Positions 1 to 14,463 of a stretch of 64,000 nt of DNA are shown here, in pieces (positions within the stretch are counted from its first letter, which is position 1; the number at the start of each line of letters is the position of its first letter). The position numbers were made by a program, and so were the translations under genes. Location of the stretch: the IMG/VR virus record IMGVR_UViG_3300023276_000008, positions 1-64,000 of that record. One strand, written 5' to 3'. A model generated the notes under the pieces. That model was not told where the DNA came from. It did no database searches and saw nothing but the letters and a program-made list of their open reading frames with translations. Origin of the DNA: a virus.

Positions 1-3
1 ATA

Positions 4-686: not shown

Positions 687-687
687 G

Positions 688-993
688 TTAAGTGTGTGTT
701 TTAACTAGTGCCTTCATTTGTTTGACTGTATTCATATGATCTTTGATCATGGTTTCAATTGAGTCTGTGGCAAGATTACAATAAGATGCATCACATGACT
801 TAGGTTGCCCTCCACATGGTCTACCTTTATCATCACCTACTCGACTATATCTAAATAGCGGGTTGGGTGTGTGTAGTTTGGTTGATCCAAATGTTGTATA
901 AGGTTCTCTTTCTTCAATTTCATTTAAGATGAAGAATCCCTTATGACATGTAGTGATTAAGTCACCAATCTTCATTCCGTTATATGATTGCAT
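688..993 (-). CDS. hypothetical protein
   Basis: 101 aa ORF downstream of tRNA-Leu. Confidence 0.7.
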   Translation of the reverse strand: MQSYNGMKIGDLITTCHKGFFILNEIEEREPYTTFGSTKLHTPNPLFRYSRVGDDKGRPCGGQPKSCDASYCNLATDSIETMIKDHMNTVKQMKALVKTHT

Positions 994-1017
994 TTTATTA
1001 ATATTTTATTTTTAAGT

Positions 1018-1094
1018 TGGTACATCTGATAGGAGTCGAACCTACAACATTTGGAGCCTAAATCCAACGCCTCTACCAATTGGGCTACAGATGC
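1018..1094 (-). tRNA. tRNA-Leu(TAG), short variable loop
   Basis: GCATCTG/CAGATGT acceptor, TTGGA-TTTAGGC-TCCAA anticodon arm, GGTTCGACTCC T arm, ACCA end. Confidence 0.9.
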
Positions 1095-1319
1095 ATTTGA
1101 TATTTACCTTTCGTTAAAATAACAACAACGTCTTATGATTGATATATAGCACAAGAACTAAAAAGTGTTTTCGGGTGAGTGAGCCTAATAATCTATTTAG
1201 AGAAGTTTCGCTACTCAGTACACCCTAGTTAACTATACATACTCACCAGAGTTGAAGGAATCGAACCCATGTATACTCATTCAACTATAAGGTAATTAAT
1301 CCTATAGAGAATTATTAAT

Positions 1320-1405
1320 TGGTACTGATGACAGGATTTGAACCTGCATACTCCGAAGAGTGGGATGGCTTAAACATCCAGTGTATTCCGTTCCACCACA
1401 TCAGC
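1320..1405 (-). tRNA. tRNA-Leu(TAA)
   Basis: GGATG-TTTAAGC-CATCC anticodon arm, long variable arm ACTC-TTCG-GAGT, GGTTCAAATCC, CCA. Confidence 0.93.
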
Positions 1406-1516
1406 TTTTTATTATTGTTTAAATTGGAGACGATTTAGGACTTTTACCTCATTTTGATTAATAATGCCATCATCGGTAGCAACTATGTTTTCTCCTTGTC
1501 GATCAACTAAGGATGT

Positions 1517-1591
1517 TGGTACATGTGGGGAATTCCGAGATCCCGTCCTGACAATTATCGGTCGTCTGCTCTGCCTCTGAGCTACACATGT
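1517..1591 (-). tRNA. tRNA-Ile(GAT)
   Basis: ACATGTG/CACATGT acceptor, GACGA-CCGATAA-TTGTC, atypical T loop CTCGGAA, CCA. Confidence 0.85.
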
Positions 1592-1602
1592 ATTTTATTT
1601 TA

Positions 1603-1776
1603 TTATTCACTACTAATTCGTAGATTATCTGATGTATGATCCATATGTACACATGGTTGATCTAAACATTCTTGATGATTGTTGAATGCATCATCGCCAC
1701 CATCAAGGAGCCAATCAATAAACTGTTCTTTAAGAATTGGATTATCAAATGTAAGTAATACGTTATTTTCTTCCAT
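1603..1776 (-). CDS. small hypothetical protein (57 aa)
   Basis: MEENNVLLTFDNPILKEQFIDWLLDGG... read by hand; below ORF-track cutoff. Confidence 0.6.
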   Translation of the reverse strand: MEENNVLLTFDNPILKEQFIDWLLDGGDDAFNNHQECLDQPCVHMDHTSDNLRISSE

Positions 1777-1793
1777 AATTTTTTAATTCATCA

Positions 1794-1872
1794 TGGACAC
1801 TATCCTTACCGCTTAGTCTTAACGGATAGTGTCCCATACATATATTCGTGATGGTATAGCGGTGAATATATG
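1794..1872 (-). ncRNA. two-hairpin element with complementary loops (candidate kissing-loop RNA)
   Basis: stems CATATATTC/GAATATATG and GGACACTATCC/GGATAGTGTCC; loops carry ACCGCT and AGCGGT. Confidence 0.45.
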
Positions 1873-1876
1873 GTAT

Positions 1877-1951
1877 TGGTACAAGATGCAGATACCGATT
1901 CTGCGACCTATTGAGTGTAAACCAATTGCTCTACCATTGAGCTAATCTTGC
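1877..1951 (-). tRNA. tRNA-Val(TAC)
   Basis: GCAAGAT/ATCTTGT acceptor, ATTGG-TTTACAC-TCAAT, T loop ATCGGTA, CCA. Confidence 0.88.
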
Positions 1952-1958
1952 ATTTGAT

Positions 1959-2319
1959 GTTAATAGTCAGTGAGTATTGTACTGACACCTCACTGACTAT
2001 TAACTATGTAGTTTGTGACGTTATCCACACGCCCCCTTCATGATACTACAATCACTTGCTATGTCTTTTGCGGATTTGTAACATAGCTTCATTGTCCGAA
2101 CTGGTTCGCGCTAAGAAGAAGCGTTCCGAACTATCTTTGTTTAGTTTCGATGAATGTATTGGTTGAACGTATGTCAAGTTGCGCTTGACAGGTTCTGAAT
2201 AATTAATCCTCTATATTCATCTAGATTGTTTTTGTTCTATGTAATCTAATCACAGGCATCTTTTTGTTGATTTGTAGAATGCGTTCTCTCGACATACTGT
2301 ATTTGTTTTGTATACCGAG
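1959..2319 (-). ncRNA. multi-hairpin structured RNA between tRNA-Glu and tRNA-Val
   Basis: about nine consecutive helices including a perfect 16 bp stem (1959-1974/1989-2004); no ORF in the track. Confidence 0.55.
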
Positions 2320-2321
2320 CT

Positions 2322-2397
2322 TGGTATTCCCAATGGAACTCGAATCCATTTCTAGCGAGTGAAAGTCGCTTGATTTAACCATATAATCTATAGGAAC
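2322..2397 (-). tRNA. tRNA-Glu(TTC)
   Basis: GTTCCTA/TGGGAAT acceptor, AGCGA-CTTTCAC-TCGCT, T loop TTCGAGT, CCA. Confidence 0.9.
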
Positions 2398-2404
2398 ATT
2401 TATT

Positions 2405-2515
2405 TTATTTTTTGTAATCTATACCTAATTTAATACAACGCTTTCTTACTGCGTTGTCACTGACATTATAGTATTTTCCCACCTTAGTCAAGGGGATTCG
2501 GTCAATTACTACCAT
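2405..2515 (-). pseudogene. 36 aa HTH fragment, possible remnant of a homing endonuclease
   Basis: PLTKVGKYYNVSDNAVRKRC resembles HTH modules of phage HNH endonucleases. Confidence 0.45.
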
Positions 2516-2607
2516 TTTTTCCATAGAGCTGACACTCCAAGACATAATAGTTTACCTACTATACATCCTGCGACGAAGCACAGTATTGTTATGGTTTGCT
2601 CACTCAT
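2509..2607 (-). CDS. 32 aa single-TM peptide
   Basis: MSEQTITILCFVAGCIVGKLLCLGVSALWKKW, coupled to neighbours. Confidence 0.45.
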   Translation of the reverse strand: MSEQTITILCFVAGCIVGKLLCLGVSALWKKW

Positions 2608-2610
2608 TTT

Positions 2611-2838
2611 TTATAGGTTACTCTCTATTAGTTGAATTGCATCATCTGCCATGCCATTAATATGACTCATTACATCATTAGCACTCCATCCTTCAAATGC
2701 TACCCACTCATGATCCGAAAGAAATTCATCTTGATCTTCTTCTGACATATCACGCCAATCATCAGGAATGTGTTCAGTGAGAGCGTTTCCGCTCATTTTC
2801 TGTAGGACTTTGAATTTTTGCTCTTTAGTTAGTTTCAT
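2611..2838 (-). CDS. hypothetical protein
   Basis: 75 aa ORF directly behind early promoter repeat copy 1. Confidence 0.75.
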   Translation of the reverse strand: MKLTKEQKFKVLQKMSGNALTEHIPDDWRDMSEEDQDEFLSDHEWVAFEGWSANDVMSHINGMADDAIQLIESNL

Positions 2839-3545
2839 TTGCTTTGCTTGTTTGCGTTGGCAGATCCTAGCACGATTTGGGGGTCTTGGTCAAGCTCTTT
2901 CGGGTCTTTTTCTTCCTTTTTATTTGGTATTTGGTGAGGTTGCTTGATTCCGTGGTATAATCCCATTTCATCGCCCAATTTAACCTCTTTCCAATCAACA
3001 AACGGAAGATCCATTATACCAATAATAGCACCTTCTGCCTTTGCCACACTTGGAAATCTCAATTCATTAATAATGTCTTTATCGAATGTTTCATTCCACT
3101 TGTCTTGAGATATTGCATCTAATACCCATCTCTTCACGAAGAATGCTCCAAATGAAACTAAACCAATTGGGTCACATTCCATTCTACTAGCTTCTGACCA
3201 CCAGTTCCAATGTTGTCCCATTTTATAAACCCATTTTCCTGCAAGGTCTAAACCATATGGTAGTGATGGTAATTCTCCTTTCATTAGTGTGTCCCATTCA
3301 AAGATTGCGATAGTGTCACTATCAATACTCTGTCCATGAACCTTCCACCAATTACGAAGTTTCCTATCTCCATTCCGCCATGCTTCATCCCTTGAAATAG
3401 AATCATCAACATCTGAGATGATCTCTACTCGTACATCGGGATTATAAAATTCCAACCACTCTAAATGAGGTACAACTAATTCATTAGTTATATTGTCTCT
3501 ATGAGTAAGTATAAGAACTGTCGTTGGTTTATGGTTTATTATCAT
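2835..3545 (-). CDS. putative glycosyltransferase-like protein
   Basis: N-terminal VLILTH strand and IAIFEWD DxD-like motif; weak. Confidence 0.4.
   Translation of the reverse strand: MIINHKPTTVLILTHRDNITNELVVPHLEWLEFYNPDVRVEIISDVDDSISRDEAWRNGDRKLRNWWKVHGQSIDSDTIAIFEWDTLMKGELPSLPYGLDLAGKWVYKMGQHWNWWSEASRMECDPIGLVSFGAFFVKRWVLDAISQDKWNETFDKDIINELRFPSVAKAEGAIIGIMDLPFVDWKEVKLGDEMGLYHGIKQPHQIPNKKEEKDPKELDQDPQIVLGSANANKQSK
2864..2915 (-). promoter_or_regulatory. early promoter repeat copy 1
   Basis: CCCGAAAGAGC-TTGACC-N18(ending TGC)-TAGGAT. Confidence 0.8.
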
Positions 3546-3567
3546 TTGTTGTTGGTTGATGCGGCAG

Positions 3568-3620
3568 ATCTTAGCACGATTTGTTGCTCTTGGTCAAGCT
3601 CTTTCGGGCTTTTTCTTCGA
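3568..3620 (-). promoter_or_regulatory. early promoter repeat copy 2
   Basis: CCCGAAAGAGC-TTGACC-N18-TAAGAT, extended -10 TG. Confidence 0.8.
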
Positions 3621-3627
3621 AATAAAT

Positions 3628-3703
3628 TGGTGTGAATGATGGAAGTCGAATCCATGACCGTCAAATTAAAAGTTTGCTGCTCTACCCACTAAGCTACATT
3701 CAC
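3628..3703 (-). tRNA. tRNA-Lys(TTT)
   Basis: GTGAATG/CATTCAC acceptor, loop CTTTTAA, T loop TTCGACT, CCA. Confidence 0.92.
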
Positions 3704-3704
3704 A

Positions 3705-4358
3705 TTATTTAAGATATTTTTCTATATCTGGCATACCTTTGTACCAGTTAAATTGTTTTGCTGTTCGTTTTCTATGACAGTTGGCGCATCTTGTTTCGCA
3801 TTTATTCAACTCTTCTATAATTCGTTTCCAACTATATGATTCTCCGACCATCTCTGATATATTTTTAAATTTTGTATCTACATCTCTATGATCTGAATCT
3901 AATATGACTGGATTTGCTTCTCCGCAATCTATACAAGGGTTATCTAAATAGTAGTTAAATATTGAACGCATGTTCTCCATCCTAACCCTTTTATTTCTCT
4001 CTTGTACCGCTATCTTATGTTCTATTGGGTTCTCTTTATAGTATTGTCTAGATCTGATATTACTACACACTCTGCACATTGTGTTATACCCATCTGGTTT
4101 TGTCTTATTCTTATTGAAGGATTCTAATGATTTTATTTCTCCACACATAGAGCATGATTTTTCGAAGATATCCTTTTTAGATTCTTTCGCCAACATACTT
4201 TTATAGTTGGCAAAACATTGACTTGTGCAATAGTGTGTGTCGCCACCAGTCATGATAGATCTCTTCATTCTCTCAAATGAAATCCCGCAATGGTCACAAT
4301 TGATATCTATATAATCTCTATATTTGGCATTAGTTAGTTCATCCCTATTTGGTATCAT
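3705..4358 (-). CDS. HNH homing endonuclease with Zn-finger repeats
   Basis: CxxC repeats; CIDCGE...DSDH...CANCHRKRT. Confidence 0.8.
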   Translation of the reverse strand: MIPNRDELTNAKYRDYIDINCDHCGISFERMKRSIMTGGDTHYCTSQCFANYKSMLAKESKKDIFEKSCSMCGEIKSLESFNKNKTKPDGYNTMCRVCSNIRSRQYYKENPIEHKIAVQERNKRVRMENMRSIFNYYLDNPCIDCGEANPVILDSDHRDVDTKFKNISEMVGESYSWKRIIEELNKCETRCANCHRKRTAKQFNWYKGMPDIEKYLK

Positions 4359-4422
4359 ACCTATATTTAGTGTATGACTACCCTACTTTTAAGATAACCC
4401 TCTATTTAAAAACCGATTAAAA

Positions 4423-4653
4423 TTATAGATTATCAAACTCTGGATATCCACCATTTAGGGCATATTCAGCACCTAGTGAGTCTTCCCATTCATTGGGGGG
4501 TGATACTGCTTGTCGAACAAGATAATATACACCATTTCTAATTCCATACAGTCTTACAAAGACAGGATAGGTTCCCATTTTGTTCGTACATGGAATGATA
4601 ACGAAGTCATCAAACCGCCTGAATAATTTATAATATTTTAGTTTTGTTAACAT
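4423..4653 (-). CDS. hypothetical protein
   Basis: 76 aa ORF. Confidence 0.6.
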   Translation of the reverse strand: MLTKLKYYKLFRRFDDFVIIPCTNKMGTYPVFVRLYGIRNGVYYLVRQAVSPPNEWEDSLGAEYALNGGYPEFDNL

Positions 4654-4730
4654 TGTTTGTTTGTGTTAGTTGTACAAGATACGTTGTTTATTTCCAATAA
4701 TAATTTTAATAATTGCTGTATGTATCTTTA

Positions 4731-4806
4731 TGGCGGTCTGGACGGGGTATGATCCCGCAACCTCATGATTGACAATCATGTGATCTACCAATTGATCTAC
4801 CAAACC
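4731..4806 (-). tRNA. tRNA-Asp(GTC)
   Basis: GGTTTGG/CCAGACC acceptor, CATGA-TTGTCAA-TCATG, G73, CCA. Confidence 0.92.
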
Positions 4807-4812
4807 TTTTGT

Positions 4813-5097
4813 TTATAATAGTTTCTTTAATACTTCTAATTCATGGGCAGATAGTTTATCTACCATCTTCTTGATGCGCCTGTCATCTTCTTGCCTATGT
4901 TTATACCAGAATGGAGAAATTGCAATTTGTCCATTAGCCTCTGCATTTTCAATGAGTATACTTTGATCAATATTAGGATCATTTGTAATCTCAGTGAGTA
5001 ATGCACAAAGCATTGCCTCTAATACTGTATTTTTTGATTGCTCTTGTTGATAGTTTGAATAATAATCATCTTGGCATCGTGAGTCTGAACATGGCAT
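4813..5097 (-). CDS. hypothetical protein
   Basis: 94 aa ORF. Confidence 0.7.
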   Translation of the reverse strand: MPCSDSRCQDDYYSNYQQEQSKNTVLEAMLCALLTEITNDPNIDQSILIENAEANGQIAISPFWYKHRQEDDRRIKKMVDKLSAHELEVLKKLL

Positions 5098-5098
5098 A

Positions 5099-5275
5099 TT
5101 ATTTATCTTCTAGTTTAAATGTTTGAAATGTACCTACTGACTTATAGTTAGTAAGTGATTGGTATGCCGAAGCATTTGGATTGTTGTTTCGTGATACGAT
5201 TAGTGCTGTATTGATATATGTAAATATCGCTACGAGAGCTAGTAGTGTTCCGAAGTATTTGTTACTGATTTTCAT
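5099..5275 (-). CDS. 58 aa membrane protein
   Basis: MKISNKYFGTLLALVAIFTYINTALIV... read by hand; fills the gap between ORFs. Confidence 0.55.
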   Translation of the reverse strand: MKISNKYFGTLLALVAIFTYINTALIVSRNNNPNASAYQSLTNYKSVGTFQTFKLEDK

Positions 5276-5471
5276 TTGTTGTGCTGTTACTATTAATGAT
5301 TTCTTGGAGGTAATTCGTCAATCCTTCGATGTCTTGGTCATCCATGTAAGACTCAATAATTATATCTAACAAGCTAGTTGGATCAAAGTATTCAGAGGTT
5401 TTACAGAATTTATTAAAAATCTCTCTGTCGTGAGCCGTTGCTTGGTCAAAATGGTGATTGAATGTTTTCAT
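5262..5471 (-). CDS. hypothetical protein
   Basis: 69 aa ORF behind promoter repeat copy 3. Confidence 0.7.
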   Translation of the reverse strand: MKTFNHHFDQATAHDREIFNKFCKTSEYFDPTSLLDIIIESYMDDQDIEGLTNYLQEIINSNSTTNENQ

Positions 5472-5499
5472 TTATTTGTTGGTTGTTGTTGCTGGGGCT

Positions 5500-5552
5500 A
5501 GTCTAGCACACCTTTCGGGGTTTGGTCAAGCTCTTTCGGGCTTTTTCTTCGA
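5500..5552 (-). promoter_or_regulatory. early promoter repeat copy 3
   Basis: CCCGAAAGAGC-TTGACC-N18-TAGACT. Confidence 0.8.
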
Positions 5553-5558
5553 TTTCTT

Positions 5559-6119
5559 TTAAGATATATGATATGTTGGAATTTGATAACCCCTTCCGAC
5601 AGGAAGATTCATTGGCTGTACACCACATATTTCAGCAGGTCTTAATTCTGGAAATTTCATATTCTCTTTATAGAATATTTTCGTTCCTATAGTTTCCAAT
5701 GTTTCATATGTGGAAGCATCAATTGAATGGTCTTCATCCCACACTGCGAACCAATAAGGTTTAGTTCTTGGGTTGAATTCTAAATATTTGCGACATTGAG
5801 GCATATGTATTGTGGGAAACCCCTCTTTGAGATTCTTAACATCACGTTTCTTAAATTTAAGAGGGGTTCTAAACTTTGGCTCTTTAACAGCTTCCACCTT
5901 TACACTCTCACATTCAACCCATGCACATACTTTCTTATGCCCTCCTACGAAGATCTTCAATGCTGTTGTTGGTTGATTCCTAAGAAAGCAATTAGTCATA
6001 GTCACTGTATACAGGCTAGGATCGTAATACCTAACTGCACCGCTAGGATAAACTACTTTCCATTTCATATAGTTCTTACCTCTCGATAAGTTGAATCTGA
6101 CTTTTGCTAATCTTTTCAT
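5559..6119 (-). CDS. hypothetical protein
   Basis: 186 aa ORF. Confidence 0.75.
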   Translation of the reverse strand: MKRLAKVRFNLSRGKNYMKWKVVYPSGAVRYYDPSLYTVTMTNCFLRNQPTTALKIFVGGHKKVCAWVECESVKVEAVKEPKFRTPLKFKKRDVKNLKEGFPTIHMPQCRKYLEFNPRTKPYWFAVWDEDHSIDASTYETLETIGTKIFYKENMKFPELRPAEICGVQPMNLPVGRGYQIPTYHIS

Positions 6120-6120
6120 T

Positions 6121-6543
6121 TTAAATGATTTCTATTGGTGTTAGTGTTGCATCACTCGCTTCTGCTTCATCTACAAACACTACTGTATATTCCCATTTGT
6201 GGGGTATGATACATAAGTTCGTGAAAATATGAATTTGTTTTGCTTCTTCGTCTGTTTCTGCTTCCATCCTAATTTCTAGAACATCCCACCCACCATCAGA
6301 TTCATATGGCTCATGAACAAATCTAAGTATTGTAGACATTGGAGCCTTGCCCTCACCTTTCCATTCCGTTACTCTTTCGGAAGTGGAGCCATTTTTGTCA
6401 ACCGCTAAATATTTGTGGTTGATTGTGTCAAAATGCAACACTAATTCGCCCCTTTTATTAATACCAGTTTTTAGGTTGTTGATGATTATTTCGGCACTAT
6501 ATTCTGAATCACCTACTACACTATATCCTTTGAAGAATTTCAT
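6121..6543 (-). CDS. hypothetical protein
   Basis: 140 aa ORF. Confidence 0.75.
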   Translation of the reverse strand: MKFFKGYSVVGDSEYSAEIIINNLKTGINKRGELVLHFDTINHKYLAVDKNGSTSERVTEWKGEGKAPMSTILRFVHEPYESDGGWDVLEIRMEAETDEEAKQIHIFTNLCIIPHKWEYTVVFVDEAEASDATLTPIEII

Positions 6544-6564
6544 TATTTTATTATTTTATTATCT

Positions 6565-6640
6565 TGGCTCTAGTGGGAGGGTACGATCCTCCAACCCTTC
6601 GAGTAACAGTCGAATGCTCTACCAATTGAGCTACACTAGA
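6565..6640 (-). tRNA. tRNA-Asn(GTT)
   Basis: TCTAGTG/CACTAGA acceptor, TTCGA-CTGTTAC-TCGAA, G73, CCA. Confidence 0.92.
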
Positions 6641-6692
6641 TTTATGTTGTGTCGGAGTATGCTTAACACCCTCTCCGACTAGGGTAAATTGT

Positions 6693-6872
6693 TTACCAGT
6701 TAGTAACTATCCACTTTACCAATACATATGCTGCTACGAATGGAGCAAAGAATATCCATAAGACTAGATCTCGACCTGTGAAGTCTACTTTATGTAAGCC
6801 TAATATCATTATTGATAGAAGCCATATCATCAGTATGAACTCTGTTATTGTATTTGGTGGTTGTTGATTCAT
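6693..6872 (-). CDS. small two-TM membrane protein
   Basis: start moved to MNQQPP downstream of promoter copy 4; two hydrophobic segments. Confidence 0.65.
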   Translation of the reverse strand: MNQQPPNTITEFILMIWLLSIMILGLHKVDFTGRDLVLWIFFAPFVAAYVLVKWIVTNW

Positions 6873-6895
6873 TGGTTGGTTGTTTGCGTTGAGCG

Positions 6896-6941
6896 ATCTT
6901 AGCACCAAATCGGGGTCTTGGTCAAGCTCTTTCGGGCTTTT
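6896..6941 (-). promoter_or_regulatory. early promoter repeat copy 4
   Basis: CCCGAAAGAGC-TTGACC-N18-TAAGAT. Confidence 0.8.
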
Positions 6942-7365
6942 ATTTGCCTTTTAAGCAATTTAGCTCATTTTCCAGTTTGGAAATGCTGTTTCTAAGCTCT
7001 TTACGCCTTTTTGAATTCTTTTCTTTCTGTATAGCTACATTCTCAAGATATGATCTATTATCAGATAGATATTTTTCATATGTTTCTAATTGAATTTTAT
7101 ACACTCGCATAAACCCAGCCATTTCATCTTCAGTATATCGATCTGCTTCACCACATGCATATATGGTAGGTTGATCTCCTACATCATAACAATCTTCATT
7201 GTCTAGACCGAATGAAATATCTTCCATGTCAATGTCATATTCAACAGACAGGGCATCGGCTAACTCTATAATATCTTTCATTGATATTGTTTGATGGTCA
7301 AAGTCTGTGTCATGCTTGTTATAACGTGTTACTTTTGAATTTCTTGGTTCAGTTGGTTTTCTCAT
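6940..7365 (-). CDS. hypothetical protein, C-terminal coiled coil
   Basis: 141 aa ORF. Confidence 0.7.
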   Translation of the reverse strand: MRKPTEPRNSKVTRYNKHDTDFDHQTISMKDIIELADALSVEYDIDMEDISFGLDNEDCYDVGDQPTIYACGEADRYTEDEMAGFMRVYKIQLETYEKYLSDNRSYLENVAIQKEKNSKRRKELRNSISKLENELNCLKGK

Positions 7366-7400
7366 TTGTTTAATTGTTTAATTGTTTAATTGTTTAATTG
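7366..7400. repeat. 8 bp tandem repeat (TTGTTTAA)x4
   Basis: read directly; lies between tRNA-Ala CCA and the next ATG. Confidence 0.9.
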
Positions 7401-7478
7401 GTGGAGTGTGAGGGTACTGACCCCTATATTTTAACTTGATTGCAAATCAAGTGCAACACCCATGTTGCCACACACCCC
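7399..7478 (-). tRNA. tRNA-Ala(TGC), non-canonical 8/4 fold
   Basis: GGGGTGTG/CACACTCC with G3.U70, CTTGA-TTTGCAA-TCAAG, AGGG-GTCAGTA-CCCT, ACCA. Confidence 0.8.
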
Positions 7479-7487
7479 TATATATTT

Positions 7488-7922
7488 TTAGCTGTCATAA
7501 CTGAAAAGTTTATCCATATACTTATTATTGTCTGGTAATTGAGGTATTGTTTGTTTTTCATTTTTGGAAAGATCGTTAATAATCTGTTCTTTGAGTTTGT
7601 TATACTTCATTGGATCAAAGTCAGGATCTTCCAAATATACAAGAAGCTTCTCATTGATCTTTTCGAGTTTTTGGTTTTCGGTGTGTTCTATGTTATTGCG
7701 TTTAAGCATTGCATTAATACGTTTATCATTCCATCCAGCAATAAACATTAATATGTTTACTAATGGAAAGTAGCACATAAACACTGCTTCACCTTGCCTA
7801 TATATATCGTAATGAGATAAAGGTTTCTCAAAATCTTTCCTAACATTTAAGTGAAAACATACTGATACAATCACATGTGTTAGTGCTATACAGCTTACAA
7901 CGTATATCTCTGTGTTGGTCAT
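7488..7922 (-). CDS. membrane protein
   Basis: 144 aa, two hydrophobic segments. Confidence 0.7.
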   Translation of the reverse strand: MTNTEIYVVSCIALTHVIVSVCFHLNVRKDFEKPLSHYDIYRQGEAVFMCYFPLVNILMFIAGWNDKRINAMLKRNNIEHTENQKLEKINEKLLVYLEDPDFDPMKYNKLKEQIINDLSKNEKQTIPQLPDNNKYMDKLFSYDS

Positions 7923-7928
7923 GGGCTT

Positions 7929-7956
7929 ACCCTAGCGGATAGGCTCAGATTGTCAA
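7929..7956 (-). promoter_or_regulatory. sigma70-like early promoter
   Basis: TTGACA-N16-TAGGGT, ATG 6 nt downstream. Confidence 0.6.
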
Positions 7957-7975
7957 CGAGAAACTTTGTCTAAAT

Positions 7976-8050
7976 TGGGTGATCGACGGGATTCGAACCC
8001 GCGCAGACAAATTTCACAAATTTGGGCACTACCACTATGCTACGATCAAC
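7976..8050 (-). tRNA. tRNA-His(GTG)
   Basis: G-1, CAAAT-TTGTGAA-ATTTG, GGGTTCGAATCCC; acceptor end slightly irregular. Confidence 0.88.
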
Positions 8051-8076
8051 ATTTAAGTTTATACATCTTCATGTAT

Positions 8077-8150
8077 TGGAGTTTATAGAGAGAATCGAAC
8101 TCTCGTACCTAACATACCAAGCTAGTGTTCTACCATTGAACTATATAAAC
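8077..8150 (-). tRNA. tRNA-Thr(GGT)
   Basis: GTTTATA/TATAAAC acceptor, CTAGC-TTGGTAT-GTTAG, GAGAG-TTCGATT-CTCTC, CCA. Confidence 0.88.
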
Positions 8151-8155
8151 TTTGT

Positions 8156-8230
8156 TGGTTGGAAGTATGGGTAACGATCCCATCTATGCAATTTTTCAGA
8201 CTGCCACTAATCCATCTCAGTTAACTTCCA
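8156..8230 (-). tRNA. tRNA-Phe(GAA)
   Basis: TGGAAGT/ACTTCCA acceptor, GCAGT-CTGAAAA-ATTGC, T loop ATCGTTA, CCA. Confidence 0.88.
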
Positions 8231-8317
8231 ATTGGTGCGTTTATACATCGCCATGTATGTATAAGAGGAATGGTTAGATTTTTAAACGCACCCTCAAGGA
8301 TTGTCCATTCATTATAT

Positions 8318-8391
8318 TGGTCGGTGATGTCAGATTCGAACTGCATCTCAAGCTCCCAAAGCCCACGTGTTACCATTACACCACACCTCCG
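8318..8391 (-). tRNA. tRNA-Pro(TGG), irregular acceptor/T stem
   Basis: C1-G72, A73, TGGGC-TTTGGGA-GCTTG, T loop TTCGAAT, CCA. Confidence 0.85.
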
Positions 8392-9009
8392 TTATTTATA
8401 ACCCTTTCTATGTTGAAAGAGTCCTCTATTATTTCTATTATCAATTATATGTAAATTTTTACCACCCTTGTCCCCAATTTTATTTTTTCTTCTATATTCA
8501 GACGACTCACATTCACGAATTATACGCTCTTGTTGGCGACCTGTCAACTTTATATTTTCTAAATCTTTATACCAAATGTTACTTTTGGTGAATCCAGATA
8601 TTTTCTTCATTACAAATATCTGTGAATTTTTAATTCTATTTATAAGATTGTTTGGAATATGATGTTTAGTTCTCAGCCAAGAAGCATATTCTTTATATAC
8701 TTCGTCATCCAATATACCTTTTGTTATGGTCTTTATCAGATCAACGTCTCCATCTTTTGGAATATATTTATCGTCTATCGCCTTATGTATAAGGTTATGA
8801 CATTCTCTACACACTGGCAGTAAATCCGTCACCTTAATATCCACTAAATTTCTATATACCATATGATGCACATCTGTAGCTTTATCTCCACAACATTCAC
8901 AAACACAATGTAAATTCATTACCTGATTTCTTAAGGCTTTCCATTCATCACTTCTAAGATATTCTGTTCTATATTCATGTCTATTATACTTTACTTTATA
9001 TTCACTCAT
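8392..9009 (-). CDS. HNH endonuclease
   Basis: CECCG...DVHH..Y...LLPVCRECHNLIH; start may extend to 9033. Confidence 0.85.
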   Translation of the reverse strand: MSEYKVKYNRHEYRTEYLRSDEWKALRNQVMNLHCVCECCGDKATDVHHMVYRNLVDIKVTDLLPVCRECHNLIHKAIDDKYIPKDGDVDLIKTITKGILDDEVYKEYASWLRTKHHIPNNLINRIKNSQIFVMKKISGFTKSNIWYKDLENIKLTGRQQERIIRECESSEYRRKNKIGDKGGKNLHIIDNRNNRGLFQHRKGYK

Positions 9010-9138
9010 AATATTTTCTTCTATTAATTGCATACGTCACTCCTTGGCGTACCTGTTGCACAGTTTATATGATTTTAGCTCATATAAGCCTTCATATGTA
9101 TAGGTTTATCTCAACCACACAATCTAATTTTAGTCAAT

Positions 9139-9173
9139 AAAAAAGCTCCTTATCTTTCGAATAAGGAGCTTCT
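9139..9173 (-). terminator. intrinsic terminator (attenuator) upstream of tRNA array
   Basis: AAGCTCCTTAT-TCGAAAG-ATAAGGAGCTT with U6 tract. Confidence 0.9.
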
Positions 9174-9202
9174 TCATATGAAACAATCAAAACACTATTG
9201 AC

Positions 9203-9301
9203 TCATTCATCCACAGAAGCTCCTGTGAAACCATTAATATCTCCTAAGAGCGTATTGGGTTCCACGGCTTTATTCGCCTCAAATGTATGCACTGTTGTCA
9301 T
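9203..9301 (-). CDS. candidate attenuator leader peptide (32 aa)
   Basis: MTTVHTFEANKAVEPNTLLGDINGFTGASVDE; AAGGG 7 nt upstream; codons 26-29 complementary to terminator 5' arm. Confidence 0.65.
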   Translation of the reverse strand: MTTVHTFEANKAVEPNTLLGDINGFTGASVDE

Positions 9302-9312
9302 TGTCTTGCCCT

Positions 9313-9341
9313 TATTTATACTTTATTGTACTAAAAGTCAA
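9313..9341 (-). promoter_or_regulatory. promoter of tRNA-array leader
   Basis: TTGACT-N17-TAAATA; also a full T4-type late box TATAAATA. Confidence 0.7.
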
Positions 9342-9354
9342 ATTAAATCTTCAA

Positions 9355-9612
9355 TTATTTAAAATTATTATGTCTTCGACGCTTTTTTCTCTGAATTTTA
9401 TCTATTACACTAGCTACTAGATATAGGATTCCTCCTCCAATGGCTACTATAACAAATAAACCAAATATAATTGCTAATGGAATCCACATGGGTGACACCA
9501 CCCACCACCAACTCCATTCAATCACACTACATAGTTTAAGTGTGATGAATACGATTGTTAATAGACCGCAGAAACCTGCATTACCTGAACTTACTTGTGC
9601 ATTTTTGCTCAT
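9355..9612 (-). CDS. phage membrane protein
   Basis: hydrophobic, WSWWWVVSPMW motif, basic tail. Confidence 0.8.
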   Translation of the reverse strand: MSKNAQVSSGNAGFCGLLTIVFITLKLCSVIEWSWWWVVSPMWIPLAIIFGLFVIVAIGGGILYLVASVIDKIQRKKRRRHNNFK

Positions 9613-9628
9613 AATTTTATATTTGTTA

Positions 9629-10156
9629 TTACCACGTTTTATCTAAATTTTGCATATCTTTCAAGTGGTCGAAAGCATACATGTCTTCATACTGGCTTGC
9701 AACATCGACTAAGAGTATTTCCTTAACCTCTCCATCATTAACAATCTTATTTGCATAAGTTGTCAGTTGACTGATAAGATTCTTAATCATTTGAGTTGTC
9801 ATTTCCAACTTCAAGTCATAGTGGAACGTAATGTTCTCTCTAAACTTAGTTGGATCATCATCAATATAGCTGAGTTTTAAATCTGCCGTATTGAGGATAT
9901 TGATACTGGTTTCTTCATAAACCTCTCGAATTGCTGCCTCAAGCACTGTCTCATTCCAATCTACATAACCACAAGGGAAACATAATTTATCTTCGTGTGT
10001 CATATCTTCGCCTCGACGTAGTACAACATATCGTTTATTACCAGTTTCAATATTCTTGATTCCAATATGTACTGCTGCTGCCACTGATCGACTTAGGTAT
10101 ACTGTACGACCATCAGCAGTTTCAACACACTCGTTATCTTTATTTTTAAATTTCAT
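9629..10156 (-). CDS. Nudix hydrolase (ADP-ribose pyrophosphatase-like)
   Basis: Nudix box PCGYVDWNETVLEAAIREVYEETS. Confidence 0.9.
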   Translation of the reverse strand: MKFKNKDNECVETADGRTVYLSRSVAAAVHIGIKNIETGNKRYVVLRRGEDMTHEDKLCFPCGYVDWNETVLEAAIREVYEETSINILNTADLKLSYIDDDPTKFRENITFHYDLKLEMTTQMIKNLISQLTTYANKIVNDGEVKEILLVDVASQYEDMYAFDHLKDMQNLDKTW

Positions 10157-10161
10157 ATTTA

Positions 10162-11376
10162 TTAGTCTTCAAATTCGTTGATAGGACATTCGCTCTTGAA
10201 CACCATGAATAGTGTCTTTACGACAGAACCAATTGCGCTAAAGATGAATTCAAATGGTGTGAATATTTTAGTTCCAACTTTATTAAGTTTTGGTCCGACT
10301 TTATCATCAGGATCGATGAAGTTACACCATACAAATGCAACCAACCCACCTGCTAATACTACTCCAATACATCCTAAAATAAGCTTCCACGTAAAGTCTA
10401 GGAATGAGAAGATCCATGATCCAAACCAAGTACCTACTGCGCCAACATTTGTGAAGAATTGAATAAGTCCTATAATGATACCCAGTAATACTGTTACTAC
10501 ACCTACATTAAGAATTACTTTTGATATTGTTTGTCCCACCTTAGTAGTAATCATGCAAATCTTCTCAATACGCTTCCTCCTTGCATCATCCTTTACAAGA
10601 TCCAACATCACTTGTTTAATAATAGGATTATCTTCCTTATTAGGAACTTCGATATTTTTAAATGTTTCTTTCCAAGTATCTGCATTCTTACATATGAAAA
10701 TTCGCATGTATAGATGCATGATTGTGCTTGATGTGAGAGGATCAGACTGTATCATTGAAAACATTCTTTTGATATGTTCAAGCTCGTAAGAATATGCTCT
10801 TATAGATCCATTCTTAGCATTTTCTCTAATTGCATTAGGAAACTTAAATTCTCCATCTTCAAATGGTAGTGTGTGTTTCAAACACCTTCCATATATTCCT
10901 ATTCCAATTGTATCACTATCAAAATCCTTCCACCGATCAAATGATTCATTAAAATCACCACAATCATTCCACCAATATTTCTTCAGGTCATATGTAGTGA
11001 TATCTGTTTCATTGAAGAACTTTTCAATTGCATCAATTGCTTCAAGCTGTGTCATACCCTTTACTCGTTTCTTTGATGCTAGATCGGATACTTTGATTTT
11101 CTCTCCAAGATATTTGATAGGCTTAATAACATTCTTGATAGTGAATGTAAGAGGAAGTAATAGAATTGAAGCTGTGCTAACCATTGCCCAAGGACAACCA
11201 TTATTTCTTACAAAGGCTGGAACATTATCAATGTCGCCAAATGTATAAACCATTGAACGATATGCTGCTGAACTTCTCTTAGTTCGCATACCCCAAGGTC
11301 TAGGTGCAGTTTTGTCTTTAATTTCTGCCCCATAAACTTTTTTAAGTGGCTTAGTAACTAGTGATAATAGATTCAT
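10162..11376 (-). CDS. membrane protein
   Basis: 404 aa, C-terminal TM helices. Confidence 0.75.
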   Translation of the reverse strand: MNLLSLVTKPLKKVYGAEIKDKTAPRPWGMRTKRSSAAYRSMVYTFGDIDNVPAFVRNNGCPWAMVSTASILLLPLTFTIKNVIKPIKYLGEKIKVSDLASKKRVKGMTQLEAIDAIEKFFNETDITTYDLKKYWWNDCGDFNESFDRWKDFDSDTIGIGIYGRCLKHTLPFEDGEFKFPNAIRENAKNGSIRAYSYELEHIKRMFSMIQSDPLTSSTIMHLYMRIFICKNADTWKETFKNIEVPNKEDNPIIKQVMLDLVKDDARRKRIEKICMITTKVGQTISKVILNVGVVTVLLGIIIGLIQFFTNVGAVGTWFGSWIFSFLDFTWKLILGCIGVVLAGGLVAFVWCNFIDPDDKVGPKLNKVGTKIFTPFEFIFSAIGSVVKTLFMVFKSECPINEFED

Positions 11377-11951
11377 TTAATTTTATTTTTATTGTTGTTG
11401 TATATCTCCTCTACTGAGGGGTGGTTGTAATTTCCACTCTCTGCTTTCTCTCTGCGGAGTTGTGATGACGAAAGATTGCCATATTGTTCGGGGATGGTCA
11501 AGCTAAAACTTGCCTTATGTAGCAAATTAGGTTCAATCAGTAAATTATCCCTATAGCCTTCCCTTGCGAAAACAAGGAATTTGACTGGAATTAGAGAAAA
11601 GTCTCTGAAATCGTCCACGAAGCTATCGCCCCACTTTTGCCATACGTCACTACCAACTACGAATGTAATGCTGTCATACCCATCTGAGGCGTATTTAATG
11701 GCTTTATCTAGGTATTTGGGTGCAGTGTTTAAATGCACTGCAAAGGGTAACATACCAACACTATGTTTAATAGCCGCAATACGCTCTTTAAGGTCTTCTT
11801 TCTTGATTTTACCCTTAATAGGGTGTTCAGTTGATACTTCAAAAACTATGAGTTTTGCATCAGTGGCAATGAACGCCATATTAGCTACAAAATAGTGACC
11901 TACATGAAATGGGTCAAAACTTCCTGAATATAGTACGATGCTATTTTTCAT
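11373..11951 (-). CDS. NMN/NaMN adenylyltransferase-like (NadD family)
   Basis: SGSFDPFHVGH (HxGH), FVVGSD, LSSSQLR. Confidence 0.85.
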   Translation of the reverse strand: MKNSIVLYSGSFDPFHVGHYFVANMAFIATDAKLIVFEVSTEHPIKGKIKKEDLKERIAAIKHSVGMLPFAVHLNTAPKYLDKAIKYASDGYDSITFVVGSDVWQKWGDSFVDDFRDFSLIPVKFLVFAREGYRDNLLIEPNLLHKASFSLTIPEQYGNLSSSQLRREKAESGNYNHPSVEEIYNNNKNKIK

Positions 11952-12391
11952 TTTTTGAGTAATTTAGCTACATGATCCGCAATCAATGATTCATCAAGTG
12001 TTCTTGATGTATATGTTAGTTCGTCAGTGTCTATATTGACCTTCACTGGATCATAGTCCTTTGTCAAGTCTATATATCCAATGACATATCTATTCAATCT
12101 CCCCTTTCTCTGATTTGTTACGAATGTGGAAGCTGTGACTACAATAACTCTAAGGTCATCTTCACGCGCCTCTTCGTTATATGATACTCCTGCATGTATT
12201 AACGCGCCTTTAACCATAGCATAGGAAACATATTTGATGTTCTCCTCTGTAGGATCAAACCCTAGAAAATTGTCAATGGATTCCCTACTATACAGTATGT
12301 TGATTGAATCAAGATAATTTGATGACCCTTCACCCATAACAGCTTTGGGAACTTCTGATCCACACCCCATTGTTATAATTTTATTTTTCAT
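11948..12391 (-). CDS. CinA/PncC-like domain protein
   Basis: MGCGS...EGSSNYL...YSRE..NFLG...VS..M...TAS, resembling CinA-C/PncC fold motifs. Confidence 0.6.
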   Translation of the reverse strand: MKNKIITMGCGSEVPKAVMGEGSSNYLDSINILYSRESIDNFLGFDPTEENIKYVSYAMVKGALIHAGVSYNEEAREDDLRVIVVTASTFVTNQRKGRLNRYVIGYIDLTKDYDPVKVNIDTDELTYTSRTLDESLIADHVAKLLKK

Positions 12392-12662
12392 CGTATGGGG
12401 GTGGAGTCAACGTATATCCTTCCTTTATTTGGACAACCTGTAGTGTGAGATATGAATCACATAGATATGCATATTCAAATAATAACATATCAAAGCAATA
12501 TAGTAATAACTGATTCATATCTTCTTCATCAAGGGCAATTTTTTGTGCTGGGATTTTTATTACAGAATCCTTCACTCTATGATATATAGAACATTCTTTT
12601 AAGAGGTCTAGATCTACATAACCTACTTGTAGGTTCAATTCATTGTCGATAAGTAATTTCAT
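12381..12662 (-). CDS. hypothetical protein
   Basis: start moved to MKLLID. Confidence 0.6.
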   Translation of the reverse strand: MKLLIDNELNLQVGYVDLDLLKECSIYHRVKDSVIKIPAQKIALDEEDMNQLLLYCFDMLLFEYAYLCDSYLTLQVVQIKEGYTLTPPPYDEK

Positions 12663-12666
12663 AATA

Positions 12667-13116
12667 TTATAATTTTGGGGGTTCCTCTTCTTCAAGACAT
12701 TTACACGCAAAATAGTTTAATAGGTCGTGCCAATCTGTTTCTGGAAAGAATCCAGCTTTATCATCCAATATGACATTGGCATACATCTTTGTATCAAAGT
12801 CGCCCCATTGCACTTTACCTGCTACTTCTGGATTTTCGTTAATGTAGTCAAAGTGAATACCATCCTTCTTAAAGAATTCATTGTATATCTCTCTATCTTC
12901 TTTAGTTGAACATGTCCACATAATGAGAACTACATCTTCTCTCTTAGAGAGGTGTTGTAACACTGTTGGGGCTAGAGGATAATACTCATTGGCTATACCA
13001 TCATAATTAGGTAGGAGGATGGTATTATGTACATCGACTACCACATAAATCTTGTCCCATTTTCTATCCTTCATTGTCTGGAAGGCAGTTTCGAAAGTTT
13101 TTACTATTCTGTTCAT
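12667..13116 (-). CDS. HAD-superfamily hydrolase
   Basis: VVVDVHNTI, WTCS, DYINENP, ILDDKAG. Confidence 0.75.
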   Translation of the reverse strand: MNRIVKTFETAFQTMKDRKWDKIYVVVDVHNTILLPNYDGIANEYYPLAPTVLQHLSKREDVVLIMWTCSTKEDREIYNEFFKKDGIHFDYINENPEVAGKVQWGDFDTKMYANVILDDKAGFFPETDWHDLLNYFACKCLEEEEPPKL

Positions 13117-13122
13117 CTTTAT

Positions 13123-13401
13123 CTATTTTGTAATGTAAATGTAAATTTTATAATCAATCATGTGCTTTTCGTGTGCTTTTCCCATCTTACGGACTATTTT
13201 AATTACTGTATATTCAGAGTTTAAGGATTCATACTTTTCTAGCTTTGATGACATATTATATGTATCGTCATACCACAATAAAGTGTCTCCTACATTTGGT
13301 ACATGAAATGGTTCTCCACCAAATGACATTTTCTGTTCCCAAATCTTAGTTGGTTCTTCATCACTATCAATGTTGTATAGATATATTCCTTTGCAGCTCA
13401 T
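13123..13401 (-). CDS. hypothetical protein
   Basis: 92 aa ORF behind own promoter. Confidence 0.7.
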   Translation of the reverse strand: MSCKGIYLYNIDSDEEPTKIWEQKMSFGGEPFHVPNVGDTLLWYDDTYNMSSKLEKYESLNSEYTVIKIVRKMGKAHEKHMIDYKIYIYITK

Positions 13402-13420
13402 GATCGGTTGGTTTGTCGTT

Positions 13421-13456
13421 AGGGGGCTACTCTACCAAGAATAACCCCCTTGTCAA
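13421..13456 (-). promoter_or_regulatory. early promoter with overlapping inverted repeat
   Basis: TTGACA-N16-TAGAGT; AGGGGGTTA/TAGCCCCCT stem. Confidence 0.7.
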
Positions 13457-13497
13457 CGTCTTTTTTTGCTCTATTTCGAGTTTTTTTTTTCGAATAT

Positions 13498-14463
13498 CTA
13501 TATCTTGAGAAATTTTTGCATTTTTCTTTTCCAGTTTTTATCATCATATCTTATCTCCAAAAGAGGTATGTTATTTTCCTCACAAAAATCTCTCTTAATT
13601 TGATCTTTTTTCTGCCTACCCAATAAAGCATCTTCGCCGCCAAAATGATCTATTGATATATAATGTTGAATTCCTTGAAATTCTATCAATTTATTATTGA
13701 TGAAGAAATCAAATTTTAGAGATCTTTTATCTATACAACCATCAAAAGTTTTTTGTTCTTCAAATATCATACCACATTCATTAAAATAATTTCTGATTTT
13801 TTTCTCCCCTTTAGAAGATCTACACTTAGGGCAACCTCCACCATTTAAGTGTAATTGAGGGGTTTGTGCAAATTCTCCATGTTTTGTGCATTCTATTTTA
13901 ACCTTTTCTTTAATTTTTTTATAGTCTACTTGATTGTACTCATATAAATCGCCATGAACACATTTTGCCTTTTCTAGAAACCAATTAGTATCCTTAGTCT
14001 TCGATTTAAATCTCTTTTCTTGTCCACATATATAACACCCCTTGCCCCGAATATGTTCAATTCCTTTCTGCATAAATTCCCCATGCACAGGACATGTTAT
14101 TACTATATGATCTGATGTTCCTGTGTATGAATCTCTATCATATACATAATAATCTCCATGAGTGTGTAAAGCTTTCTCTTCAAATTCATCAAAAGAAATT
14201 GTATTTTTTATAGAAGCTCTATGCCTCGAACATTTTTTACAGCCCCGACCCATTAAATGAGAATTAGGTATTTGTAAAAATGCCCCATGAAGAGGGCATA
14301 CTATTTCCACTTTTTGTTTACTTTTTTCATACACAACCCTCGAATAATCGAATGTGTTGCCATGGACTTCTATAGCCTTTAATATAAACTCCTCGGTGGT
14401 TAATGTCTTAAATAATCCATCTGAGGAGTTTATATTTTTTGATTGCGAATCTCTCTGTGTCAT
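13498..14463 (-). CDS. freestanding homing endonuclease (DUF723-like Zn repeats plus PD-(D/E)XK domain)
   Basis: three CPxHGxF.Q...H..G.GC repeats; SKGE, KFDFF, IEFQGIQHY. Confidence 0.8.
   Translation of the reverse strand: MTQRDSQSKNINSSDGLFKTLTTEEFILKAIEVHGNTFDYSRVVYEKSKQKVEIVCPLHGAFLQIPNSHLMGRGCKKCSRHRASIKNTISFDEFEEKALHTHGDYYVYDRDSYTGTSDHIVITCPVHGEFMQKGIEHIRGKGCYICGQEKRFKSKTKDTNWFLEKAKCVHGDLYEYNQVDYKKIKEKVKIECTKHGEFAQTPQLHLNGGGCPKCRSSKGEKKIRNYFNECGMIFEEQKTFDGCIDKRSLKFDFFINNKLIEFQGIQHYISIDHFGGEDALLGRQKKDQIKRDFCEENNIPLLEIRYDDKNWKRKMQKFLKI

Follow-up and report, generated by a model that had tools for sequence, protein, structure and literature searches.

In the attenuators trpL, hisL, pheL, leuL and thrL a short open reading frame (ORF) precedes an antiterminator and a terminator that share one strand, and the stop codon of the ORF is placed such that a ribosome terminating there covers the 5′ strand of the antiterminator. 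The same three features are found on a viral contig, IMG/VR record IMGVR_UViG_3300023276_000008, of which the first 64000 bases were analysed (the window; the contig has 84951 bases and is rated ~41% complete). The element in question, a candidate leader ORF with an intrinsic terminator, lies on the minus strand ahead of an HNH gene and a tRNA region, and all coordinates are window positions. An initial annotation, made from the sequence alone, had read it as a translation-sensing attenuator with the architecture of trpL and hisL. The alternative-structure switch at this locus is real as a sequence, and a chance origin is very unlikely. With regard to its function, a ribosome-gated conditional intrinsic terminator, placed at the boundary between a nicotinamide adenine dinucleotide (NAD)-salvage block and the tRNA region, is the best single explanation, one that we hold tentatively and to which we give rather less than an even chance.

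The nearest functional analogue that we found appears to be the whiB7 (wblC) attenuator of mycobacteria and other actinobacteria, in which a short upstream ORF (uORF) likewise stands before a terminator. Stalling on this uORF is believed to give antitermination, and the system is outlined as a sensor of translation stress in general, in which shortage of amino acids, tRNAs and tRNA synthetases is included (PMC10274678). It differs in that it serves a host transcription-factor gene and not a phage tRNA region, and in that its uORF is enriched in Ala and conserved across species; no such enrichment or conservation could be shown for the phage ORF. The Salmonella leaders mgtL and mgtP respond to proline or Mg2+, with Rho as the effector in the case of mgtA. 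Translation of these short leader ORFs, which precede mgtA and mgtCBR, is summarised as selecting between two stem-loops (PMC3641672). The use of leader-ORF translation as a selector is the likeness to our locus, and the difference is that these leaders belong to host virulence and transport operons. An extra tRNA array is carried by the trn operon of Anabaena, which is reported to be switched on under translational stress (PMC8421152, PMC10272220) and to be controlled by the transcriptional repressor TrcR (PMC10272220); this system is cellular and repressor-run, and does not employ a leader ORF and terminator. Lastly, T4-type late promoters and terminator-guarded homing endonucleases resemble the locus in the motif TATAAATA and in the HNH gene that stands right behind the terminator.

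Phage tRNA genes are usually seen as aids to codon usage or as substitutes for degraded or cleaved host tRNAs. To our knowledge, the control of their expression is largely unknown, and among the papers listed by a literature search, judged by title and the start of the abstract, none described a leader-ORF attenuator before phage tRNA genes. If the favoured reading is true, phages would gain feedback control of translation capacity via a ribosome-gated terminator before a tRNA array, and tRNA genes would join the amino-acid and stress genes as targets of leader-ORF attenuation. The element comprises the following features:

9336-9341, minus strand: TTGACT, a -35-like hexamer of uncertain relevance; the letters are present, and its partner hexamer fails the rule of the consensus scan.
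9313-9320, minus strand: TATAAATA, a probable T4-type late-promoter motif that includes the TAAATA taken as a -10 hexamer in the initial annotation; assigned from motif spacing statistics and from the geometry outlined in PMC1524935.
9203-9301, minus strand: candidate leader-peptide ORF of 32 codons plus TGA, read from the sequence.
9248-9277, minus strand: codons 9-18 of this ORF, with five codons that are rare by the codon usage of the phage's long ORFs.
9164-9224, minus strand: antiterminator hairpin, from folding.
9136-9177, minus strand: intrinsic terminator, consisting of an A-tract (9177-9172), a core hairpin (9171-9143) and a T-run (9144-9139) followed by ATT, from folding and a hairpin scan.

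The letters on which the initial annotation was built are in place. TTGACT (9341-9336) is separated by a 17-nucleotide (nt) spacer from TAAATA (9318-9313), and AAGGG (9313-9309) stands 7 nt before the ATG at 9301, from which 32 codons run to the TGA at 9205-9203. The strong terminator claimed at 9173-9139 was borne out by folding: its core of 12 base pairs (bp; 9171-9160 with 9154-9143), followed by a run of six T, then A and TT, has an energy of -14.9 kcal/mol, or -19.2 kcal/mol with the A/U extension, and 0/200 shuffles folded as well. Moreover, AGAAGCTCCT (9173-9164) in the 5′ arm of the terminator can pair over its full length with AGGAGCTTCT (9224-9215), its exact reverse complement. These ten pairs form the base of a 21-bp hairpin that encloses ORF codons 26-32 together with the TGA; above the base come a 4x4 internal loop and a helix of 5 bp, then a 2x2 loop and a helix of 6 bp closed by a terminal loop of 7 nt. 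The antiterminator hairpin reaches -26.7 kcal/mol (z -5.34, 0/200 shuffles as good, ensemble frequency 0.57), and it is therefore more stable than the terminator. The third hairpin of the initial annotation, TTCACAG/CTGTGGA, also exists (-8.0 kcal/mol; 2/200 shuffles fold as well) and is the sole candidate for a 1:2 structure, but it occurs in no minimum free energy (MFE) structure of the nascent RNA.

The complement to the terminator arm is not readily produced by chance. When the upstream DNA was shuffled with dinucleotide composition preserved, a perfect complement of the 18-nt 5′ arm, 10 nt or longer, arose in 20, 9 and 9 of 20000 shuffles for 100, 130 and 170 nt of upstream sequence, respectively. 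A hairpin finder applied to the whole 84951-bp genome (stem of at least 7 bp, T-rich tail) returned 21 terminator-like hairpins. The upstream complement at our locus is 9 nt within the arm as cut by the scan and 10 nt with extension, and those of the other 20 hairpins measure 0-6 nt. The chance of such a complement is thus 0.0005-0.001 per terminator and, by arithmetic, ~0.01-0.02 after allowing for the 21 hairpins. Folding all 21 at the point where polymerase would sit on the T-run provided a control internal to the genome, in which 19/21 kept every pair in the MFE structure. The two that were lost are the present terminator (0/12 pairs kept) and a weak hairpin of -6.6 kcal/mol at 7473, which sits in a tRNA-like stretch. 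Therefore, this is the only strong terminator in the genome with a built-in competitor.

Folding of the nascent RNA showed that the antiterminator is the MFE structure once 9164 has been made, at -44.5 kcal/mol compared to -28.7 kcal/mol sixteen bases before, and that it remains so until the RNA end reaches 9143. At the decision point, that is with the RNA ending at 9150-9143, about what sits outside a polymerase positioned on the T-run, the antiterminator state has -45.9 kcal/mol and the terminator state -42.3 to -45.1 kcal/mol. At full length, with the T-run allowed to pair, the terminator wins, with -53.1 vs -49.0 to -49.7 kcal/mol.

The Escherichia coli K-12 trpL region, folded with the same script as a control, behaved differently. 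In its naked nascent RNA the 1:2 hairpin appears first and the terminator follows, with no antiterminator at any stage, whereas the naked phage RNA adopts the antiterminator because there is no competing 1:2 hairpin. It follows that untranslated phage RNA should read through, whereas untranslated trpL RNA terminates. In trpL no perfect complement of the terminator arm exceeds 5 nt, vs a perfect 10-bp helix within a 21-bp hairpin here. Of the trp-type features, a terminator and an antiterminator are present, and the 1:2 hairpin and a run of regulatory codons are absent. The attribution to trpL/hisL architecture therefore failed: there is no competitive anti-antiterminator, the naked RNA folds into the antiterminator, and the trpL control folds otherwise. 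Owing to the opposite untranslated default, knockout of the start codon should act oppositely to trpL, and the prediction that separates the two designs is that loss of the start codon raises read-through rather than lowering it.

Ribosome geometry was modelled on equilibrium folds with a footprint of 28 nt, from -12 to +15 around the codon in the peptidyl (P) site. The antiterminator is sterically possible with P-site codons 1-21 and is blocked for codons 22-33, up to the stop. For codons 1-21, the energy difference between the two states at the decision point (RNA end 9145 or 9143) stays between -4.0 and +3.6 kcal/mol. The proposal that a ribosome finishing the leader masks the antiterminator thus agrees with the footprint geometry, but the full-length equilibrium favours the terminator regardless. 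Similarly, the proposal that stalling in roughly the first 20 codons frees the antiterminator agrees with the positions at which the hairpin can form, but RNA that is not translated at all is also expected to read through. Its tie to tRNA depletion or anticodon nucleases is pure conjecture. Overall, the earlier interpretation is partly supported.

Ribosome gating is favoured because the end of the ORF and its stop codon lie inside the antiterminator. The RNA would fold in two mutually exclusive ways that share 9173-9164, as the antiterminator, which would be made first, or as the terminator. A ribosome at about codon 22 or beyond, or at the stop, while polymerase makes the terminator would block the antiterminator and lead to termination. 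Were the ORF untranslated, or the ribosome lagging (for example in codons 9-18), the antiterminator would form first and polymerase would read through, into the HNH gene at this locus and nearly directly into tRNA genes in an HNH-less variant described below. Termination that depends on completed translation would amount to negative feedback on translation capacity, and not to the four-segment trp design. The 3′ strand of the antiterminator would be made ~20 nt ahead of the 3′ arm of the terminator, which would permit kinetic control. We infer translation of the ORF, the start of the transcript, kinetic trapping of the antiterminator and the physiological tie to tRNA supply. The wider proposal, that a lytic phage gauges translation capacity with a tiny ORF and uses a homeostatic ribosome-dependent terminator for its tRNA supply, with a default opposite to that of trp, we regard as unlikely. 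Under it, ribosomes that complete the ORF in time would bring about termination; lagging or missing ribosomes, a condition that late infection or a loss of tRNAs should produce, would leave the pre-formed antiterminator standing and the phage tRNAs would be transcribed.

The two hexamers proposed as a sigma-70 promoter are there, but TAAATA is better read as the T4-type late-promoter motif of this phage. A consensus scan omits the proposed promoter because TAAATA lacks a T at position 6, and offers instead TTGAAG-18-TACAAT at 9354-9325 with 9/12 matches; promoter-like sites numbered 63 against 65.6 expected, and the scan has no discriminating power here. TAAATA occurs 142 times in the genome. 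It lies no more than 25 nt before the first ATG in 27/95 ORFs of at least 100 amino acids (aa), and exactly 5 or 6 nt before it in 21/95, compared to a background in which it ends 3-7 nt upstream of 46/3923 of all ATGs (1.2%). Sheath, tail and further structural genes are among the ORFs with this spacing, as are two HNH genes. The element carries gTATAAATA, and up to the end of the motif it shares 12 bases without a difference with the DNA preceding the gene at 50161. In T4 the late promoter TATAAATA is given at -13 to -6, and the form in Aeh1 as CTAAATA (PMC1524935). By T4 geometry, the transcript is predicted to start near 9307, with a 6-nt leader ahead of the ATG; AAGGG would therefore lie outside the late transcript and be carried only by transcripts from the upstream operon.

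Three further observations concern these motifs. The full 8-mer TATAAATA is not enriched (14 seen vs ~18 expected by arithmetic), and only the 6-mer at fixed spacing from the ATG is. The motif 5 or 6 nt before the ATG is mostly CTAAATA or TTAAATA, for example at 34092, 29720, 26989, 47566, 49570, 50161 and 62796. A second promoter right behind the terminator (TTGACT, 9137-9132) was rejected, having no acceptable -10 by eye.

The duplex of AAGGG with the anti-Shine-Dalgarno sequence (-5.0 kcal/mol) beats that of 91% of the 69 long ORFs (at least 150 aa) and is equalled by 12% of random ATGs. The long ORFs have a median duplex of 0.1 kcal/mol, no better than random ATGs. From the motif spacing and the near-absence of Shine-Dalgarno sequences, the late mRNAs of this phage appear to be leaderless, starting at or beside the ATG, and this hints at a host that initiates without a Shine-Dalgarno sequence. 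Leaderless late mRNAs bear on the identity of the host and on how the phage ORFs, the present one included, get translated. The regions upstream of the phage ORFs are A-rich, and the HNH gene at 9033 is exceptional in carrying AAGGAG. Within the element (9187-9224, minus strand), AGGAG in the 5′ strand of the antiterminator stands 9 nt before an ATG at 9210, the start of a mini-ORF of 7 codons with its end at 9187. The terminator 3′ arm repeats AAGGAGCTT, and the anti-Shine-Dalgarno duplex has -6.6 kcal/mol. AGGAG and the ATG at 9210 could possibly form a second ribosome entry site inside the switch.

The candidate leader ORF by itself is no more than chance, as stop-free 32-codon frames are common in this DNA. 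Codons 9-18 include GCG, GCC, CCC, ACG and CTC, each at no more than 6.0 per 1000 in the phage's long ORFs. Five rare codons in a 10-codon window were found in 0/692 in-frame gene segments, and this density was reached by 14% of composition-matched shuffles. The patch falls inside the window in which the antiterminator stays free, and codons 9-18 are a plausible slow patch; the codons fit equally a deliberate slow patch or a frame free of coding selection, and they argue against an ordinary small protein gene. The peptide contains no codon runs, and the cluster of regulatory codons that marks trp-type leaders is therefore lacking. Its 15 distinct residues are ordinary, since 49% of 688 windows reach that number.

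Several results weigh against a ribosome-gated terminator. The full-length RNA favours the terminator at every ribosome position, by 1.2-9.1 kcal/mol, and therefore any switch must be kinetic. The estimated refolding barrier at the decision point is low (~6.8 kcal/mol), such that the antiterminator might simply be displaced. The body of the leader (9307-9179) is not more structured than shuffles (z -0.66; 44/200 as good). The late-promoter motif 11 nt ahead of the ORF was counted in favour of the reading, but the ATG stands 11 nt past the motif compared to 5-6 nt in the late genes of this phage, and from the predicted late start the ORF would have a 6-nt leader without a Shine-Dalgarno sequence and may not be translated. 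The rare-codon patch fits a non-coding RNA equally well, and is matched by 46/934 off-frame stop-free segments. With regard to the residues encoded, 23/31 fall within the ten tool-confirmed tRNA identities vs an expected fraction of 0.584 (P 0.052), which becomes 27/31 (P 0.033) when the unconfirmed Ile and Ala of the initial annotation are added. None of the five Thr codons (ACA four times, ACG once) is read by tRNA-Thr(GGT) under standard wobble. The correspondence is marginal, and the peptide cannot be called a clear mirror of the phage tRNAs. Downstream, a sigma-70 site within the HNH gene can drive the Pro-Phe-Thr-His tRNAs independently of the leader.

Comparative evidence adds to these points. 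No relatives of the element were found in phage records, IMG/VR or metagenome contigs, and with one sequence there is no support from covariation or ORF conservation. Positions 8300-9700 gave no match by megablast against 50,697 phage records; blastn against the same set returned 8 records, each matching only ~100 nt of the gene for an 85-aa membrane protein, and two of these records lacked tRNA synteny. The 404-aa neighbour protein had no tblastn match in the phage records. The Nudix protein encoded upstream matched 2 loci in IMG/VR and 2 in metagenome contigs, in both cases at 35-37% identity, and those in IMG/VR lacked tRNAs and synteny and those in the metagenome contigs lacked synteny; the HNH protein matched none in IMG/VR. 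A DNA pattern of the two complementary 10-mers occurred at 9 loci in IMG/VR, none alike by blastn, and a degenerate pattern of the first 12 codons had 0 matches there. Self-search of the genome revealed no second copy. Moreover, no listed variable site falls in 9117-9360 across four marine runs, and the neighbourhood is also near-invariant (0.7-3.6% differences). Special conservation of the leader was accordingly rejected, as the contig of run X15 has 1 difference in 9117-9360 but nearby only 3 in 434 and 8 in 222. No family in Rfam 15 reaches its gathering threshold for the element. Hits to Yfr10 (24.9 bits vs 43), PyrR (23.5 vs 54) and BTnc201 (23.1 vs 105) are sub-threshold and driven by the hairpins, and a T-box reading was set aside, with no T-box match in the Rfam search.

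The best surviving alternative, which we judge somewhat unlikely, is a self-contained late unit made of a promoter, a small RNA of ~170 nt or a 32-residue protein, and a terminator, in which the complement serves RNA structure or stability and not read-through. It accounts for TATAAATA as a phage late-promoter motif, and the full-length MFE structure is a closed fold that includes the terminator (-53.1 kcal/mol, z -4.33), which would end both this unit and the upstream operon; the body of the leader without the terminator, however, has no more structure than its shuffles, and the ATG is 11 nt from the motif and not 5-6. In a natural variant the block 9117-9360 is flanked by variable or replaced DNA, as a module would be. 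As regards a protein product, an identical peptide is called on 9 contigs, and the codon adaptation lies within the range of genes: a value akin to the codon adaptation index of 0.687 ranks at the 22nd percentile among in-frame gene windows of 31 codons and above 88% of off-frame stop-free windows. The peptide nevertheless has no homologue besides itself among 1.84 billion representatives, and no gene segment among the 692 has such a rare-codon patch. The 90% identity cluster of the peptide has one more member, a sigma-54-like protein of 458 aa encoded on an unrelated contig of 3368 bases, which was taken as a clustering artefact. A late unit also leaves unexplained why a hairpin of -26.7 kcal/mol uses exactly the 5′ arm of the terminator.

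It is improbable, in our estimation, that the antiterminator is run by a factor other than the ribosome, such as an RNA-binding protein, a distinction between the early and the late polymerase, or RNase III, which would cut the long hairpin in read-through precursors and so part the mRNA from the pre-tRNA. The competition between the two hairpins is itself compatible with such a factor. The irregular 21-bp duplex of the antiterminator spans about two helical turns, which may be comparable to phage RNase III sites, and tRNA precursors need processing. Against this, no candidate binding motif was identified in addition to the lack of an Rfam family at threshold, and the exact placement of the stop codon within the hairpin would go unexplained, a placement for which a ribosome-gated terminator accounts.

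Least probable is a plain strong terminator at an operon end, in which case coincidences picked by eye from 64 kb would account for the 10-nt complement as well as for the ORF and the promoter-like motifs: stop-free 32-codon frames and TAAATA are common, promoter-like sites do not exceed shuffles and comparative support is lacking, but the complement is too rare by chance, no other strong hairpin among the 21 is outcompeted at the decision point, and the stop codon falls together with both the complement and the inner hairpin.

Downstream of the element the order is the HNH gene and then the tRNA region, in which more HNH genes are interspersed. The features that bear on the target of the switch are:

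8257-9117, minus strand: HNH homing-endonuclease cassette (HNH ORF 9033-8392 and tRNA-Pro 8391-8318), phrog_144, absent in a natural variant.
8519-8547, minus strand: perfect sigma-70 site TTGACA-17-TATAAT (12/12), within the 3′ part of the HNH ORF and upstream of tRNA-Pro.
7977-8391, minus strand: first tRNA block, Pro(TGG), Phe(GAA), Thr(GGT) and His(GTG), from ARAGORN, Rfam and reading of the anticodons.

An HNH gene after the terminator, as had been annotated, was confirmed by the profile match (E 1.8e-12). The first tRNAs were also recovered, Pro, Thr and His by ARAGORN and Phe (8230-8159) by Rfam at 41.9 bits with its anticodon GAA assigned by reading; a further tRNA that ARAGORN missed and Rfam found lies at 1880-1951 on the minus strand (57.4 bits). 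The sigma-70 site at 8547-8519 is the best in 1-14000, and by arithmetic the chance of one such site per 14 kb is ~2-3%. The HNH cassette may thus bring its own promoter for the downstream tRNAs. The initial annotation had cautioned that internal promoters might confine the switch to the HNH-Pro-Phe-Thr-His block. The caution is upheld by the perfect promoter before tRNA-Pro, but the block is too wide, since with internal promoters the switch would here directly gate mainly the HNH gene. That gene has a strong AAGGAG 7 nt before its ATG, which is unusual for this phage; it follows the terminator and lacks the late motif, which is found 5 nt before the ATG in two further HNH genes, at 13498-14463 and 3705-4358 (-).

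The evidence on variants comes from contigs of the four marine runs, in which the parts left uncovered in runs X9-X11 are uninformative. A 758-letter contig of run X15 follows 9721-9500 with 8 differences, has 141 other letters for 9500-9360, follows 9360-9117 with 1 difference and, before rejoining at 8257-8238, has 131 other letters where the window has 859 bases (9117-8257). In run X11, too, a contig leaves the window sequence at 9117, where it has a loose end. Judged from these junctions, the HNH gene together with the tRNA-Pro allele looks like a mobile homing-endonuclease cassette with a co-converted flank. In the HNH-less variant the element is 131 letters from 8257, which lies between tRNA-Pro and tRNA-Phe, and within ~150 nt of the tRNA-Phe side. 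The description of the element as heading a tRNA array is therefore supported as the underlying arrangement, but here the HNH cassette intervenes. One X15 contig spans the 3′ end of the Nudix gene, the leader, the terminator and the tRNA side; X15 is an RNA run from an oligo-dT library, seen as Logan contigs, and as such cannot show transcription, read-through or RNA ends.

On the upstream side, a NAD-salvage gene block on the minus strand leads into the element. It comprises NAMPT (phrog_448), a cytidylyltransferase-like gene, the Nudix gene and the gene for the 85-aa membrane protein. The latter belongs to phrog_1374 and is Tmemb_185A-like; its C-terminal half (9360-9500) is what has been swapped for the 141 unalignable letters in the X15 variant, and the DNA on either side of this replacement differs by less than 4%.

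The contig encodes a tail sheath (profile match to phrog_23, E 8.7e-64) and a large terminase (phrog_36964, E 1.9e-81) that is 31-34% identical to those of Synechococcus phages B3 and B23 and of E. coli T4-like phages. The same or near-identical DNA is present in at least 20 seawater or marine studies. On these matches the source virus, which is uncultured, is judged to be a marine myovirus and a distant relative of T4-like phages.

Lastly, the further internal promoters belong to a four-copy family of 77-nt repeats. The copies lie in the tRNA region at 2844-2920, 3548-3624, 5480-5556 and 6876-6952 and share 62-82% identity with the reference copy. Read on the minus strand, each has a short GAAA-loop hairpin directly adjoining TTGACC-N18-TA(A/G)(G)A(T/C)T with a preceding TG, and on the plus strand it reads as a hairpin and then a T-run.

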